Shown here: piece after piece, positions 1,599 through 7,253 of the stretch
Position numbering within the stretch: position 1 is the stretch's first letter
Layout: the number at the start of each line of letters is the position of its first letter
NCBI RefSeq assembly: GCF_054482525.1
Contig: NZ_CM137006.1
Reading direction: 5' to 3' (one strand)
DNA: 64,000 nt
The notes under the pieces: generated by a model
Told to the model about the DNA's origin: nothing
The model's database searches: none
The model's input: the letters and a program-made list of their open reading frames with translations, nothing else
Position numbers and translations under genes: made by a program

Positions 1599-2219
1599 AT
1601 GAAAACTACGCATACCGCCCTCCCCTTTGCAGGACATACGCTGCATTTTGTTGAGTTTGATCCGGCGAGTTTTCGCGAGCAGGATTTACTCTGGCTGCCG
1701 CACTACGCGCAACTGCAACACGCTGGACGTAAACGTAAAACAGAGCATTTAGCCGGACGGATCGCTGCAGTTTATGCGCTGCGGGAATATGGCTATAAAT
1801 GTGTGCCCGCAATCGGCGAGCTACGCCAACCTGTGTGGCCTGCGGAGGTATACGGCAGTATTAGCCACTGTGGGGCTACGGCATTAGCCGTGGTATCTCG
1901 TCAACCGATTGGCATTGATATCGAAGAGATTTTCTCTGTACAAACCGCAAGAGAATTGACAAACAACATTATTACACCAGCAGAACACGAGCGACTCGCA
2001 GAATGCGGTTTAACCTTTTCTCTGGCGCTGACACTGGCATTTTCCGCCAAAGAGAGCGCATTTAAGGCAAGCAAGATACAGGCCACTCAAGGTTTTCTGG
2101 ATTATCAGATAATTAGCTGGAATAAACAGCAGATCATCATTCGACTAGAGGATGAGCAGTTTGCTGTGCACTGGCAGATAAAAGAAAAAATAGTCATAAC
2201 GCTGTGCCAACACGATTAA
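1599..2219 (+). CDS. entD: Phosphopantetheinyl transferase EntD (enterobactin synthase activation)
   Basis: 206-codon ORF starting MKTTHTALPFAGHTLHFVEF, downstream of fepA as in K-12; track ORF 1449..2219 has an in-frame upstream extension. Confidence 0.88.
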   Translation: MKTTHTALPFAGHTLHFVEFDPASFREQDLLWLPHYAQLQHAGRKRKTEHLAGRIAAVYALREYGYKCVPAIGELRQPVWPAEVYGSISHCGATALAVVSRQPIGIDIEEIFSVQTARELTNNIITPAEHERLAECGLTFSLALTLAFSAKESAFKASKIQATQGFLDYQIISWNKQQIIIRLEDEQFAVHWQIKEKIVITLCQHD

Positions 2220-2329
2220 TTGACAACATCTGGTACGATTCGCCCGCAGCCATCACTGACCACGGGCGAAAGTGTAAAGCAGGTGCCTTACCATCCTGAC
2301 CTGACAACCGGATATGCGGGGATTACTCC

Positions 2330-3668
2330 CATAAGCGCTAACTTAAGGGTTGAACCATCTGAAGAATGCGACGCCTCGGTGCCTCGTTAAGACGATGCCT
2401 CGCGTTCTTCAATTGCGTTTTGTAGGCTGTCAGGGATACTGTCCCACGAATGGCCACCTGTAAGCTCCAGATGACCATTTTTGTTATTCTCCACAACGAG
2501 TTAGTTCTTCTTTTCGGATCCGGCACTTCTGGGGGGGAAATCCAGCGATGGCTGGATTATGTCGTCAATTAAAAATGCGGCGAGTAGATTAGCAAATATC
2601 CACGCTTTCGCGAGTTCAGGTTCCTTTGCACGCAAAGCATCCAGGTGCAGCAAACTTTTGAGCCGCTTAAAAGCCAGTTCAATTTGCCATCGCAGACGGT
2701 AACAATCAGCCACTTGCTCTGCTGAATATTCATCTTCCGGTAATGATGTTAGCAATAGCACATGGCCCGCTGCTTCCAGCGTTTCCGCCTGAACTACTCG
2801 TCCTTTTCGACGATTCTCGCTGAGCAGTCGGGTTTTACTGATTAATGCTTTTTCGGGAGGAAGTGATACGGCAATGAGACGTGCCGGAAAGGGAGCTCCG
2901 GCTTTTTTATTACCTGAATTGCCTATCATTACAGTGGTTTCACCGTTCTTACCGCAATCCAGCCCGCGCAGAAAACCCATCATGTCAAAGCGCATTCCTT
3001 CTGCAGTTAACCAGCGCAATCCTCGCCAGTGAACCCGGACGATATAATCAGCTTCTCCAAAAGCAAGTGAGCGGATACATTCGGGACGCGAACCGAATCC
3101 CCGGTCAGCAATGCGTATCTCGTCTGCCGTTTGCGCAAATCGGTCCAGCCGTTCAGCGTCTCTGCTGTCGGTTAGCTCAAAATCAGTGAACTGACAGGTA
3201 TGAGGATCATATCCCATATGTAGTCGCCATTCAGCGCTGCCGCCCCCGGGCGCACTGATTGCTGTTCCATCGACAAGACGCAATCTCTTTCCGCTTGTAC
3301 AACCCGTAACTGCGGCGCGTACAGCAAGTGTTTGTGCGGCAAGTATGCCAAACCAGTCGGCGGCATTCCGCAGCCGCTTCAGGAGAGCCACGTCAGATAA
3401 TGTTGCAACGTCATGGAGCTGAGCCCATGCAGTGACTTCACGTAATGACATCCCCCCGGGGCCGTAAGCCAGCCCCAGACGTAGCAGAGTTGCAGCATCA
3501 CGAATTTCGCGGCGGCGGGTTAGAGCCCCGGCATTACGTGCCGAAGTATCCAGTTCTTCGGGCTTACCAATATGGGCCAGAATTGCTGACCAGTTATCGT
3601 GAGAGTAATTCATCGGCACGTTAAATCATATCAGGCGTAATACCACAACCCTTAAGTTAGCGCTTATG
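2330..3668 (-). mobile_element. IS186 (IS4 family), copy 1, 1339 bp
   Basis: Terminal inverted repeats cataagcgctaacttaagggttg (2330-2352) and its reverse complement (3646-3668); flanked by direct repeat ggattactcc (10-bp target duplication) within a GGGG-N6-CCCC hotspot. Confidence 0.92.
2501..3619 (-). CDS. insL: IS186 transposase InsL
   Basis: 372-aa ORF MPMNYSHDNWSAILAHIGKPEEL... (canonical start probably at MNYSHD, 3613); identical protein to the copy-2 ORF. Confidence 0.92.
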   Translation of the reverse strand: MPMNYSHDNWSAILAHIGKPEELDTSARNAGALTRRREIRDAATLLRLGLAYGPGGMSLREVTAWAQLHDVATLSDVALLKRLRNAADWFGILAAQTLAVRAAVTGCTSGKRLRLVDGTAISAPGGGSAEWRLHMGYDPHTCQFTDFELTDSRDAERLDRFAQTADEIRIADRGFGSRPECIRSLAFGEADYIVRVHWRGLRWLTAEGMRFDMMGFLRGLDCGKNGETTVMIGNSGNKKAGAPFPARLIAVSLPPEKALISKTRLLSENRRKGRVVQAETLEAAGHVLLLTSLPEDEYSAEQVADCYRLRWQIELAFKRLKSLLHLDALRAKEPELAKAWIFANLLAAFLIDDIIQPSLDFPPRSAGSEKKN

Positions 3669-3689
3669 GGATTACTCCCCGCACAACGG

Positions 3690-3842
3690 CTACTTCTTCG
3701 GTTCGTAAGCGAGAACAGCCTTAAACTCAATATTACGTTCCTTCACCGTAAACTCACACAGCGAGTCGCGGACCAGAAGCGTAAATCCCAGCACCGTTAA
3801 ACACAGCACTATGACTGCCACAAGGGCATATTTCGTCAGCAT
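3690..3842 (-). CDS. Hok-family type I toxin (hokE-like paralog, locus 1), 50 aa
   Basis: [50 protein letters not shown]; single TM helix plus the conserved R-D-S-L-C-E motif of Hok/Gef peptides; stop 21 bp from the IS186 end. Confidence 0.85.
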
Positions 3843-3987
3843 GTTTATATTGCCTCCATGCGAAGAAGGGACTACCATCCGAGTTGTTGAGGTTCGGAGT
3901 GGCAGCCCCAGGATTGATAGAAATATCTCCTGGGGCTTCATCTTTCCAGACCTCAGAGTAAACCTGAAACCGGAAAGCTTCAGGCAC
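3754..3987 (-). CDS. mok-like overlapping reading frame (locus 1); canonical mok ATG is shifted into the hok frame here
   Basis: 77-aa track ORF in the mok frame from a GTG at 3987; the ATG that starts Mok in locus 2 (atgaagccccag) is in frame with hok in locus 1 because of a 1-nt indel, giving the 83-aa track ORF 3690..3941. Confidence 0.4.
3885..3945 (+). ncRNA. Putative Sok-type antisense RNA (locus 1)
   Basis: Plus-strand promoter-like TTGCCT (3850-3855), 17-bp spacer, TACCAT (3873-3878), antisense to the hok/mok leader; placement by analogy to K-12 sokE/hokE spacing. Ends are approximate. Confidence 0.35.
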
Positions 3988-4181
3988 CCGCTGTTATCTT
4001 ACCCTTCCTTAGCAAAATAACTGTTTATTTATACAGCTAGTCCTGTTTCGGACTTCTGTTGGCAACACTCGTTATTGCTCGTAAAACGACATCGCCCGCA
4101 GCCATTGCTGACCGCGGGCGAAAGTGTAAAGCAGGTGCCTTACCACCCTGACCTGACAACCGGATATGCGGGGATTACTCC

Positions 4182-5520
4182 CATAAGCGCTAACTTAAGG
4201 GTTGTGGTATTACGCCTGATATGATTTAACGTGCCGATGAATTACTCTCACGATAACTGGTCAGCAATTCTGGCCCATATTGGTAAGCCCGAAGAACTGG
4301 ATACTTCGGCACGTAATGCCGGGGCTCTAACCCGCCGCCGCGAAATTCGTGATGCTGCAACTCTGCTACGTCTGGGGCTGGCTTACGGCCCCGGGGGGAT
4401 GTCATTACGTGAAGTCACTGCATGGGCTCAGCTCCATGACGTTGCAACATTATCTGACGTGGCTCTCCTGAAGCGGCTGCGGAATGCCGCCGACTGGTTT
4501 GGCATACTTGCCGCACAAACACTTGCTGTACGCGCCGCAGTTACGGGTTGTACAAGCGGAAAGAGATTGCGTCTTGTCGATGGAACAGCAATCAGTGCGC
4601 CCGGGGGCGGCAGCGCTGAATGGCGACTACATATGGGATATGATCCTCATACCTGTCAGTTCACTGATTTTGAGCTAACCGACAGCAGAGACGCTGAACG
4701 GCTGGACCGATTTGCGCAAACGGCAGACGAGATACGCATTGCTGACCGGGGATTCGGTTCGCGTCCCGAATGTATCCGCTCACTTGCTTTTGGAGAAGCT
4801 GATTATATCGTCCGGGTTCACTGGCGAGGATTGCGCTGGTTAACTGCAGAAGGAATGCGCTTTGACATGATGGGTTTTCTGCGCGGGCTGGATTGCGGTA
4901 AGAACGGTGAAACCACTGTAATGATAGGCAATTCAGGTAATAAAAAAGCCGGAGCTCCCTTTCCGGCACGTCTCATTGCCGTATCACTTCCTCCCGAAAA
5001 AGCATTAATCAGTAAAACCCGACTGCTCAGCGAGAATCGTCGAAAAGGACGAGTAGTTCAGGCGGAAACGCTGGAAGCAGCGGGCCATGTGCTATTGCTA
5101 ACATCATTACCGGAAGATGAATATTCAGCAGAGCAAGTGGCTGATTGTTACCGTCTGCGATGGCAAATTGAACTGGCTTTTAAGCGGCTCAAAAGTTTGC
5201 TGCACCTGGATGCTTTGCGTGCAAAGGAACCTGAACTCGCGAAAGCGTGGATATTTGCTAATCTACTCGCCGCATTTTTAATTGACGACATAATCCAGCC
5301 ATCGCTGGATTTCCCCCCCAGAAGTGCCGGATCCGAAAAGAAGAACTAACTCGTTGTGGAGAATAACAAAAATGGTCATCTGGAGCTTACAGGTGGCCAT
5401 TCGTGGGACAGTATCCCTGACAGCCTACAAAACGCAATTGAAGAACGCGAGGCATCGTCTTAACGAGGCACCGAGGCGTCGCATTCTTCAGATGGTTCAA
5501 CCCTTAAGTTAGCGCTTATG
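4182..5520 (+). mobile_element. IS186 (IS4 family), copy 2, 1339 bp, inverted relative to copy 1
   Basis: Same 23-bp terminal inverted repeats (4182-4204 and 5498-5520); same ggattactcc flanking duplication in a second copy of the hok 3-prime region; internal ORFs are identical to copy 1. Confidence 0.92.
4231..5349 (+). CDS. insL: IS186 transposase InsL
   Basis: 372-aa ORF identical to the 2501..3619 protein. Confidence 0.92.
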   Translation: MPMNYSHDNWSAILAHIGKPEELDTSARNAGALTRRREIRDAATLLRLGLAYGPGGMSLREVTAWAQLHDVATLSDVALLKRLRNAADWFGILAAQTLAVRAAVTGCTSGKRLRLVDGTAISAPGGGSAEWRLHMGYDPHTCQFTDFELTDSRDAERLDRFAQTADEIRIADRGFGSRPECIRSLAFGEADYIVRVHWRGLRWLTAEGMRFDMMGFLRGLDCGKNGETTVMIGNSGNKKAGAPFPARLIAVSLPPEKALISKTRLLSENRRKGRVVQAETLEAAGHVLLLTSLPEDEYSAEQVADCYRLRWQIELAFKRLKSLLHLDALRAKEPELAKAWIFANLLAAFLIDDIIQPSLDFPPRSAGSEKKN

Positions 5521-5541
5521 GGATTACTCCCCGCACAACGG

Positions 5542-5694
5542 CTACTTCTTCGGTTCGTAAGCGAGAACAGCCTTAAACTCAATATTACGTTCCTTCACCG
5601 TAAACTCACACAGCGAGTCTCCGACCAGAAGCGTAAATCCCAGCACCGTCAAACACAGCACTATGACTGCCGCAAGGGCATATTTCGTCAGCAT
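5542..5694 (-). CDS. hokE: Hok-family type I toxin HokE-like (locus 2, adjacent to ybdK), 50 aa
   Basis: [50 protein letters not shown]; position next to ybdK matches K-12 hokE; has G where locus 1 and other Hok peptides have R. Confidence 0.8.
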
Positions 5695-5794
5695 GTTTAT
5701 ATTGCCTCCATGCGAAGAAGGGACTACCATCCAAATTGTTTGGGTTTGGAGTGGCAGCCCCAGGGTTGATAGAAATATCGTCCTGGGGCTTCAT
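5606..5794 (-). CDS. Mok (modulation of killing) overlapping reading frame, locus 2
   Basis: 62-aa [65 protein letters not shown] starting upstream of hok and ending inside it in a different frame, the canonical hok/mok arrangement. Confidence 0.55.
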
Positions 5795-5797
5795 CTT
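5737..5797 (+). ncRNA. sokE: Putative Sok-type antisense RNA (sokE-like, locus 2)
   Basis: Plus-strand TTGCCT (5702-5707), 17 bp, TACCAT (5725-5730); predicted transcript is antisense to the mok start region. Ends are approximate. Confidence 0.4.
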
Positions 5798-6125
5798 TCC
5801 AGACCTCAGAGTAAACCTGAAACCGGAAAGCTTCAGGCACCCGCCGTTATCTTACCCTTCCTTAGCAAAATGGCTGTTTATTTATACAGTAAGTCCTGTT
5901 TCGGACTTCTCAATCCTCATTTGATCAACTGAAGCTGAACCCGTTTTTTTCTGCATGCCTCAATCGTCAAAATTCTTCGCCACCAGTCCGCACTGCCATA
6001 ACTTGTCATATTGCAAAATGTAGCCAATTTGCTTCAGTCACCATCATCAAAAAAAAACATTCCAGAACTTCCGCATCTCGCCCAGTCGCTCCCACTTCTA
6101 TACTGAATAGAAAACGCCAACATAA

Positions 6126-7253
<1,128 letters not shown>

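Follow-up and report, generated by a model that had tools for sequence, protein, structure and literature searches.

The window, a 64-kb stretch of E. coli DNA, contains in its entD-ybdK interval two tandem hok/mok/sok units, each of which carries one copy of IS186 (Table 1). Alignment confirmed the two copies of the repeated unit that were described in the first-pass annotation, but the homology of unit 2 stops at about position 5909 rather than at 5930. The severed 3' segments F1 and F2 differ at 4 of 89 bp, and the hok bodies H1 and H2 differ by 16 substitutions and one 1-nt indel in 389 bp. The sum for the non-IS parts, 21 of 478 positions (4.4%), agrees with the divergence of about 4% reported at first.

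Table 1. Features of the doubly occupied hokE array in the entD-ybdK interval (positions in the window)
Feature	Position	Strand	Basis
entD, left neighbour of array	1599..2219	+	ORF list; coordinates transferred from RefSeq annotation of identical-sequence loci
F1, 3' untranslated end cut off from hok unit 1; fold-back (fbi) box 2281-2288 and terminal stem-loop	2241..2329	-	Alignment with F2; IS-free mRNA pairing
Target-site duplication GGATTACTCC of IS186 copy 1	left 2320..2329, right 3669-3678		
IS186 copy 1, 1339 bp, 23-bp terminal inverted repeats; transposase CDS 2501-3613	2330..3668	-	
H1, hok unit 1 body; hok ORF 3690-3842; mok ATG 3939-3941; 5' tac box 3982-3989	3669..4057	-	ORFs, translations, Rfam RF01794
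Sok-like antisense RNA, unit 1	3891..3945	+	53/55 identical to annotated K-12 sokE
Spacer joining units 1 and 2, 35 bp; marks tandem arrangement	4058..4092		Alignment; junction query in other genomes
F2, 3' end cut off from hok unit 2; fbi box 4133-4140; terminator-like stem-loop 4092-4121	4093..4181	-	
IS186 copy 2, 1339 bp; transposase CDS 4237-5349; duplications 4172-4181 and 5521-5530	4182..5520	+	
H2, hok unit 2 body; hok ORF 5542-5694; overlapping mok ORF 5606-5794 intact; 5' tac box 5835-5842	5521..5909	-	ORFs, translations, Rfam RF01794
Sok-like antisense RNA, unit 2	5738..5798	+	1 mismatch and 1 inserted base relative to K-12 sokE
ybdK, right neighbour of array	6135..7253	+	ORF list; annotation of identical loci

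The two IS186 copies had been noted to encode identical proteins and to be inverted relative to each other. Both points are borne out, and the identity extends to the DNA level: the copies are exact reverse complements with 0 mismatches in 1339 bp, and both are identical to K-12 IS186A and IS186B (1339/1339). The transposase is encoded on the minus strand in copy 1 and on the plus strand in copy 2, such that copy 1 is codirectional with hok1 and copy 2 is convergent with hok2. The terminal repeat is the 23-bp sequence CATAAGCGCTAACTTAAGGGTTG, and the 370-aa transposase ORF matches the NCBIfam IS4 family model NF033592 (133 bits, with a cut-off of 115).

In both units the end of IS186 lies 21 bp past the hok stop codon, and both copies are found between direct GGATTACTCC repeats inside GCGGGGATTACTCCCCGC, as expected from the GGGG-N6-CCCC target and 10-bp duplication proposed in the first-pass annotation. 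The target of each insertion, CGGGGATTACTCCCCG, is a hairpin in the mRNA located 11 bp beyond the hok stop, and its DNA, GGGG-ATTACT-CCCC, is at the sequence level a perfect fit to the IS186 motif GGGG(N6/N7)CCCC. IS186 inserts at this motif in either orientation, some sites being hit repeatedly, and K-12 has only 19 sites of the N6 type (PMC5009759); the specificity is also reported by saiSree et al. 2001, as cited in PMC3446290. In addition, hok/sok genes adjoin hotspots of mobile-element insertion (bioRxiv 10.1101/527788). A search of the 64-kb window for intact GGGGNNNNNNCCCC gave 0 matches (0.73 expected by chance). The only two GGGGNNNNNNCCCC sites of the IS-free ancestor in these 64 kb are the two hok hairpins, and both are now filled.

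The translations confirm the Hok differences noted earlier, namely V8 and R25 in unit 1 versus A8 and G25 in unit 2, and Hok of unit 2 is 100% identical to K-12 HokE. Both proteins match NCBIfam Hok models with E values of 1e-10 to 1e-14, without reaching the curated cut-offs that apply to the HokA and subfamily models; in strain PCN033, which is identical to the IS-stripped window at 4815 of 4815 positions across both hok ORFs, RefSeq calls both of them HokE. Rfam family RF01794 is matched over its full length in unit 1 (3834-3989, 84 bits) and unit 2 (5686-5842, 82.4 bits), above its gathering score of 59, and by this match the structured 5' leader and the Sok-target region of hok mRNA are present in both units. 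Putative sok genes, homologous to the annotated K-12 sokE, are likewise found in both; a simple promoter scan found no consensus promoter for the putative Sok RNAs. The 1-nt indel that had been placed at the mok start is real (a G at 5780 that is absent in unit 1), but it falls 12 nt into the mok ORF, within the loop of the Sok hairpin. The 1-nt deletion in unit 1 shifts the mok ATG into the hok frame and creates an 83-codon fusion ORF, which is also the state of K-12 hokE, while the mok frame of unit 2 is intact (62 codons).

As had been suggested, the insertions part the hok ORF from the 3' element of its mRNA: in the reconstructed IS-free mRNA, 5' GGGUGCCU pairs with AGGCACCU in the severed flank, and the predicted folding of both IS-free mRNAs brings the 5' end onto the F segment. 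For a contiguous full-length mRNA, this 5' tac/3' fbi pairing is predicted only if the IS is first deleted in silico; in the sequence as it stands, the fbi boxes are 1349 bp further from their hok bodies. Each insertion thereby cuts the hok/mok/sok body off from the final ~90 nt of hok mRNA, where the fold-back box and the terminal stem-loop reside. If R1 hok/sok and K-12 hokC and hokE are a guide, no stable, translationally inert pool of full-length mRNA should form when the fold-back element is missing, and so both loci are expected to be disabled as killers of the post-segregational type. IS elements have been described as inactivating the hok loci of K-12 (PMC7232551, citing Pedersen and Gerdes 1999), and post-segregational killing has not been demonstrated for chromosomal loci according to the literature (bioRxiv 10.1101/2025.08.07.668861). 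The hok and Sok RNAs could still be transcribed from the interrupted units. The gef (hokC) mRNA of K-12 terminates within IS186 and lacks the fold-back element, yet antisense RNA still regulates it (PMC3562002); because this IS186-bearing locus is still transcribed and regulated, the term "inactive" may be too strong.

The entD-ybdK interval is best explained as a widespread and old hokE tandem pair, each unit of which was separately and recently hit by IS186, a reading that we hold with a probability of roughly 0.85. In a neighbour-joining tree of 9 strains, the hok units cluster by position, entD-proximal units together and ybdK-proximal units together. When both IS186 copies and one duplication each are removed, the window is identical to PCN033 at 4815 of 4815 positions and to 19KM1776 at 4787 of 4788 (1 difference), and both strains have the tandem hokE pair with the two IS186 sites exactly empty. 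The near identity of relatives with empty sites argues that both insertions are recent, and also that two plain insertions suffice. The proposal of two old paralogous hok loci, independently disrupted, is thus supported by the position-wise clades, the IS-free relatives and the opposite orientations. Identity of the two IS186 copies is uninformative in this regard, because K-12 IS186A and IS186B are also identical to them. Presumably the chromosomal hokE locus, a type I toxin-antitoxin system, was duplicated in tandem long ago, and each of the two hairpins would then have received IS186 by a transposition of its own in recent strain ancestry, with a 10-bp duplication generated each time. The orientation of IS186 at each hairpin would be random, because the motif is palindromic. 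We infer that local hopping of the first copy, over a distance of 513 bp, may have produced the second.

The tandem hokE junction is present in 2398 of 5426 complete E. coli genomes with 90-100% identity, counting matches with at least 80% coverage of the junction query. Doubly occupied arrays are found in all four orientations, (-,+) in 34 genomes, (+,-) in 27, (+,+) in 28 and (-,-) in about 41, and the orientation of IS186 in them looks random. The O104:H4 outbreak references, e.g. NC_018658, carry doubly occupied arrays. The first-pass annotation had implied that the structure is rare, which does not hold, since the same tandem arrangement occurs in these references and in about 130 other assemblies. 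Its presence in standard strains, an outcome named in that annotation as refuting, takes away the novelty, while the structural interpretation stands; the observation is an ordinary, well-explained polymorphism with nothing new in it.

Occupation of the array has recurred in three sets of strains, in which the IS-free relatives share hok-unit sequences or HokE/EntD proteins with the IS-bearing strains. In the first, 1190 has no IS, VTB96933v is (-,-) and GPEC403-625 is (+,-); in the second, 55989 has no IS, O104:H4 2009EL-2071 is (-,-) and the 2011 outbreak strains are (+,-). The third set pairs GPEC1210, with three IS-free units, and 181.1, with three units that are all occupied. As a side observation, IS186-active lineages tend to fill every unit of the array (2/2 here and in O104:H4, 3/3 in 181.1).

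One alternative, which we consider improbable, is that the (-,+) state was reached by secondary rearrangement from a same-orientation or other occupied combination. An IS could invert in place through its 23-bp ends, which the near-palindromic target lengthens (39 of 41 bp); alternatively, the IS, F and H repeats could mediate successive inversions. Consistent with such events, alleles identical over 3.3 kb are seen with (-,+), (+,-), (-,-) and no IS, and inversion of the central unit by IS-by-IS recombination is documented. The IS of GPEC403-625 also lies between GGATTACTCC and its reverse complement, resembling a conversion scar, and simple insertion does not account for this inverted duplication copy. 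However, both IS186 copies of the window have clean direct duplications, the nearest relatives have both sites empty, and insertion in either orientation at one IS186 site has been documented experimentally (PMC5009759).

Somewhat less probable still is a single IS186 insertion that was then copied by homologous recombination, whether by gene conversion, unequal exchange or duplication of the IS-bearing unit. Copying would explain why the two IS186 and their duplications are identical and why all four flanks share the loop allele of the lineage (GGATTACTCC here, GGATTGCTCC in O104:H4), and 181.1, in which one IS has unequal flanks, is evidence of recombination through IS copies in arrays of this kind. 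However, every IS186 copy examined is identical anyway, and the loop alleles of the two units already agree in IS-free relatives such as PCN033. Copying through F and H homology would preserve orientation, and so the inverted copies argue strongly against gene conversion or duplication of the IS-bearing unit through the flanks; opposite-orientation arrays (61 genomes) are about as frequent as same-orientation arrays (about 69). Mis-assembly of a single hokE/IS186 unit, or of an IS-free pair, into two IS-bearing units is the least credible alternative: identical 1.34-kb repeats 513 bp apart with flanks that are 96% identical are hard for short reads, but the four junctions are distinct and internally consistent, with paralogue-specific differences, and about 130 complete assemblies, obtained independently, share the architecture, the (-,+) orientation being present in 34 of these.

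When tandem arrays were sampled systematically, only 3 of 28 had any IS, but about 130 of about 174 arrays with IS186 at the downstream unit also have it upstream. Double occupancy is therefore far above the level expected if the units were hit independently at the overall rate, which argues that some coupling exists; lineage-specific IS186 activity, local hopping and selection are candidate sources. It is conceivable, though unlikely, that the hok 3' hairpins are more than passive hot spots, through selection for joint silencing of all the paralogous toxin copies or as a co-evolved landing pad for IS186. If the landing-pad reading were true, inverted IS pairs would make the hok cassette flippable.

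The two inverted 1.34-kb IS186 copies form a perfect inverted repeat around hok unit 1, and homologous recombination between them could flip this unit. The central unit is in fact inverted in SW070910 and O111:H8 SF26 102-1, with the predicted inverted duplication copies.

The array matters little beyond annotation. It provides a clean natural case in which a sequence-specific IS fills, repeatedly and independently, every copy of its target inside a duplicated gene, and in which the resulting inverted repeats then flip the enclosed gene. The copy number of hokE (1 to 3) and the occupancy and orientation of IS186 at entD-ybdK are hypervariable even in near-identical strains; the state of the locus is unfit as a deep phylogenetic marker, and assemblies may legitimately differ there. 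Most "hokE" annotations in IS186-bearing lineages denote loci parted from their 3' regulatory element.

The array resembles other IS186 hot spots (the lon promoter of E. coli B, fimA and menC) in the motif, in the length of the duplicated core and flank, and in insertion in either orientation with repeated independent hits at one site. Unlike those hot spots, the motif is present twice here, 513 bp apart, because it sits inside a tandemly duplicated gene, and both copies are filled. The hok/mok/sok locus of plasmid R1 is likewise similar, with a Hok of 50 aa, a mok frame that in unit 2 overlaps hok, a putative antisense Sok, a match to RF01794 and predicted pairing of the 5' and 3' mRNA ends (here in the IS-free reconstruction). 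In contrast to R1, the loci here are chromosomal, the 3' element is physically severed and the unit 1 mok start is in frame with hok.

Duplication of hokE at the entD-ybdK locus has been reported for AIEC NRG857c (hok-2.1/2.2) and E. coli W, and about 10% of Hok genes reside in islets of 2-6 copies (PMC7232551; PMC3032704; bioRxiv 10.1101/2025.08.07.668861). These published toxin-antitoxin islets are IS-free arrays, and wholly IS-occupied arrays are not discussed in those reports.

The closest parallels are the IS186-bearing hok loci of K-12. As stated in the first-pass annotation, K-12 (MG1655) has a single hokE with one IS186 (IS186B) at the same site, in the orientation of unit 1 of the window. 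The two are alike in locus (entD-ybdK), target hairpin, duplication (GGATTACTCC) and IS186 (0/1339 differences), but K-12 has one unit rather than two. Its 3' flank is that of F1 (0/89 differences), while its hok body groups with the ybdK-proximal clade of unit 2 (8 versus 15 differences), a pattern that could reflect an ancestral single copy or the collapse of an array. At K-12 hokC (gef), a different hok paralogue at another chromosomal site (dnaJ-nhaA), IS186A is inserted 22 bp past the stop codon in GGGG-ATCACT-CCCC with a 10-bp duplication, GGATCACTCC, and its transposase is convergent with hok as in unit 2. Between them, K-12 hokE/IS186B and hokC/IS186A show both of the configurations found in the window.

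Sequence reading and an ORF list place the genes between 1500 and 7000 in the order fepA, entD, hok unit, hok unit, ybdK, and alignment and ORF analysis confirm the claim of the first-pass annotation that two tandem, diverged hok units are each associated with an IS186 insertion. Each unit consists of a hok 3' flank (F), an IS186 copy and a hok/mok/sok body (H), with unit 1 next to entD and unit 2 next to ybdK (see table). The two flanks align with differences at 4 of 89 positions, the two bodies with 16 substitutions and one 1-nt indel over 389 bp, and translation bears out the reported differences between the unit 1 and unit 2 Hok proteins (V8/A8 and R25/G25). Three details needed small corrections. 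In the alignment, the homology of unit 2 stops near 5909 rather than 5930; the indel described at the mok start is present, but lies 12 nt into mok, inside the Sok hairpin loop; and the IS copies, said to encode identical proteins, are also identical as DNA.

Features of the hok/IS186 array (window positions)
Feature	Coordinates	Strand	Source
entD	1599-2219	+	ORF list
F1, 3' flank of hok	2241-2329		exact-match and alignment scripts
IS186 copy 1	2330-3668	transposase on -	exact-match and alignment scripts
H1, hok/mok/sok body	3669-4057		exact-match and alignment scripts
Spacer, 35 bp	4058-4092		exact-match and alignment scripts
F2	4093-4181		exact-match and alignment scripts
IS186 copy 2	4182-5520	transposase on +	exact-match and alignment scripts
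H2	5521-5909		exact-match and alignment scripts
ybdK	6135-7253	+	ORF list

The two 1339-bp elements are perfect reverse complements of one another (0 mismatches), and the sequence matches both IS186A and IS186B of K-12 MG1655 at 1339/1339 positions. The ends are 23-bp terminal inverted repeats, and the transposase, of 370 aa, scores above the cut-off of the NCBIfam IS4 model. Direct GGATTACTCC repeats flank each copy within GCGGGGATTACTCCCCGC, and 21 bp separate the hok stop codon from the IS186 end in both units. IS186 has a highly specific target, GGGG(N6/N7)CCCC, whose N6 form occurs at only 19 sites in K-12; the element inserts in either orientation, and some sites have been hit independently many times (PMC5009759). 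The 64-kb window contains 0 intact copies of this motif, against 0.73 expected by chance; its two ancestral copies are the hok hairpins, both now filled. In the folded mRNAs, the target is a small hairpin that lies after the hok stop and before the fold-back box (fbi) of hok mRNA.

The duplication itself is widespread. The H1-spacer-F2 junction was found at 80% coverage or more, with 90-100% identity, in 2398 of 5426 complete E. coli genomes, including O157:H7, O111 and O145 strains. Neighbour joining of the hok bodies of nine strains places the entD-proximal units in one clade and the ybdK-proximal units in another, with the single K-12 hokE unit grouping in the latter. The hokE units cluster by position, and the paralogues are therefore old. 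The proposal of two old paralogous hok loci is thus supported by both the positional clades and the distribution of the junction.

The age of the insertions can be judged from PCN033 and 19KM1776, the nearest relatives, in which the tandem hokE pair carries no IS. The 24-kb right flank of the array is 100.0% identical to 19KM1776 and 99.8% identical to PCN033. When both IS copies and one copy of each duplication are stripped from the window, the result equals PCN033 at 4815/4815 positions and differs from 19KM1776 at 1 of 4788. The sites in these two strains are exact empty sites, and on this comparison both IS186 insertions are young. The first-pass annotation had offered either independent disruption by IS186 or one insertion followed by gene conversion. 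No conclusion on gene conversion can be drawn from the identity of the IS copies, since all IS186 elements examined are identical. However, copying of an IS between units through the F and H homology would preserve its orientation, and the copies in the window are inverted. This opposite orientation, together with the exact empty sites in the relatives, supports independent disruption. A four-step inversion chain linking (-,+) to (+,-), where the signs give the transposase strand in units 1 and 2, is conceivable in principle but is not needed, as IS-free sister genomes exist. The array is thus an ordinary feature: a common tandem hokE pair in which IS186 has recently inserted twice, independently, at its known target motif.

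All four orientation combinations of doubly occupied arrays occur at similar frequency across the collection: (-,+), as in the window, in 34 genomes; (+,-) in 27, among them O104:H4 C227-11 and 2011C-3493; (+,+) in 28; and (-,-) in about 41, once about 59 that pass only via the 23-bp terminal repeat are subtracted. The (-,-) count was made with 190-bp IS ends and corrected for the terminal repeat; a (-,-) query with 250-bp IS ends was inflated to 1608 genomes by the joining of non-colinear pieces of the same IS. The notion that only opposite-orientation pairs persist, with same-orientation pairs collapsing by recombination, was rejected, since (+,+) and (-,-) arrays are as common as the opposite-orientation ones.

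In 101 genomes an IS in minus orientation comes directly after the spacer-F2 junction, in 73 one in plus orientation, and about 130 of these carry an IS in the upstream unit too. Because H1 and H2 align with each other and genomes with a single copy also exceed the threshold, occupancy of the upstream site was scored in 60 systematically sampled genomes; these held 25 tandem arrays without IS, 3 with two and 0 with exactly one. About three quarters of arrays with a downstream IS186 are occupied upstream as well, but IS-bearing arrays make up only about a tenth of the tandem arrays. Occupancy is therefore non-independent, double occupancy being much commoner than single-site frequencies predict. 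This could result from lineage-restricted IS186 activity, from local hopping, which has been reported for IS elements (PMC5009759), from selection, or from shared ancestry and clonal sampling.

The same contrast between IS-free and occupied relatives recurs elsewhere in the species, in keeping with what has been published on IS186 (PMC5009759). Strain 1190 has no IS, whereas VTB96933v is (-,-) and GPEC403-625 is (+,-), and all three show 0 differences from the window between fepA and hok2. Strain 55989 has no IS, whereas O104:H4 2009EL-2071 is (-,-) and the 2011 outbreak strains are (+,-), with HokE and EntD proteins in common. Three-unit arrays are IS-free in GPEC1210 (locus L013, 4602-5761, local coordinates here and for the loci below) and filled with IS186 in all units, as (-,+,+), in 181.1 (L008, 2912-7955), with 0 differences in each of the three hok bodies. 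The third IS186 of 181.1 has unequal flanks, GGATTACTCC and GGATTGCTCC, which indicates recombination through IS copies. The second IS186 of GPEC403-625 (L001, NZ_CM142769.1, 3083-4431) has GGATTACTCC on its left and the exact reverse complement, GGAGTAATCC, on its right, an inverted rather than a direct repeat, whereas the sister strain GPEC856 (L004) has a normal direct repeat; the inverted flanks could be a scar left by an in-place flip or by conversion, or an error introduced in polishing.

In the window, unit 1 is bracketed by the two oppositely oriented IS copies, which make up a perfect inverted repeat of 1339 bp. The central hokE unit is reversed relative to entD and ybdK in SW070910 (L009, 1796-4985) and O111:H8 SF26 102-1 (L010, 1751-4941) but uninverted in SW071620, a sister strain of SW070910, and the duplication copies beside the reversed unit show exactly the inversion expected from IS-by-IS recombination. 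The array in the window is one state of a flippable segment.

The flanks of the array also vary. Compared with the lineage of 1190, VTB96933v and the GPEC strains, the window is identical (0 differences) between fepA and the hok2 end, then diverges by about 1% from about 6047 into ybdK and beyond, and PCN033 and 19KM1776 match the window on both sides of this point; the pattern indicates a recombination breakpoint at the array edge in one lineage. Positions 6000-30000 match 19KM1776 (NZ_CP151009.1, 1569814-1594526) at 100.0% identity in two pieces, with about 712 bp more in 19KM1776, an insertion/deletion difference that falls somewhere in the ybdK-cus-nfr region. Other elements occupy the entD-ybdK interval in some genomes (rows H314, H316, H317, H328 and H339; OV24, L012). 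IS150 or IS3-family elements lie beside a single hokE in some strains, and in OV24-type genomes the genes immediately bordering the array, at the position that entD has in the window, encode sugar ABC transporter and SDR oxidoreductase proteins.

The toxin ORFs and the putative Sok genes are intact in both units. Rfam RF01794 matches the units at 84 and 82 bits (gathering score 59), and both contain sequence homologous to sokE as annotated in K-12. A simple consensus scan, without informative value, found no hok or sok promoters in either unit. Unit 2 encodes a Hok identical to K-12 HokE and keeps an overlapping mok frame of 62 codons. In unit 1 (3690-3941, minus strand), as in K-12 hokE, a 1-nt deletion brings the mok ATG in frame with hok, and a predicted fused ORF of 83 codons (MKPQEIFLS...MLTKYAL...) replaces the separate overlapping frame. 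Computational removal of each IS and one duplication copy yielded IS-free mRNAs of 405 and 406 nt. When folded, their 5' GGGUGCCU pairs with AGGCACCU in F, beyond which lies a GC-rich terminal stem-loop; F is accordingly assigned as the fbi end of hok mRNA, and F2 contains a terminator-like match. In the actual sequence, 1349 bp lie between each fbi box (2281-2288 and 4133-4140) and its own hok body. The suggestion that IS186 separates hok from its 3' mRNA element therefore holds, with fbi and the terminal stem-loop cut off from each body. The hok1 gene reads into IS186 copy 1 in the transposase sense direction, and hok2 and the copy 2 transposase are convergent. By analogy with R1 and K-12, a stable, inert pool of full-length hok mRNA would not be expected to form, and for this reason the two loci should not work as delayed killers.

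Sequence comparison agrees with the statement of the first-pass annotation that K-12 has a single hokE with one IS186: IS186B lies at the same site as in the window, flanked by the same duplication and oriented like the copy in unit 1. At K-12 hokC (gef), IS186A is oriented as in unit 2 and interrupts GGGG-ATCACT-CCCC 22 bp past the stop. The gef transcript has its 3' end within IS186 and no fbi, but retains regulation by antisense RNA (PMC3562002). A passage in PMC7232551, citing Pedersen and Gerdes (1999), takes the K-12 hok loci to have been inactivated through IS elements, point mutations or rearrangement. In E. coli and Klebsiella, the hok/sok genes adjoin hot spots of mobile-element insertion (bioRxiv 10.1101/527788). 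Both NRG857c and E. coli W have a duplicated hokE, and islets of 2-6 copies hold about 10% of hok genes (bioRxiv 10.1101/2025.08.07.668861). Each element, and the whole doubly occupied array, is already present in public annotated genomes and is explained by published mechanisms.
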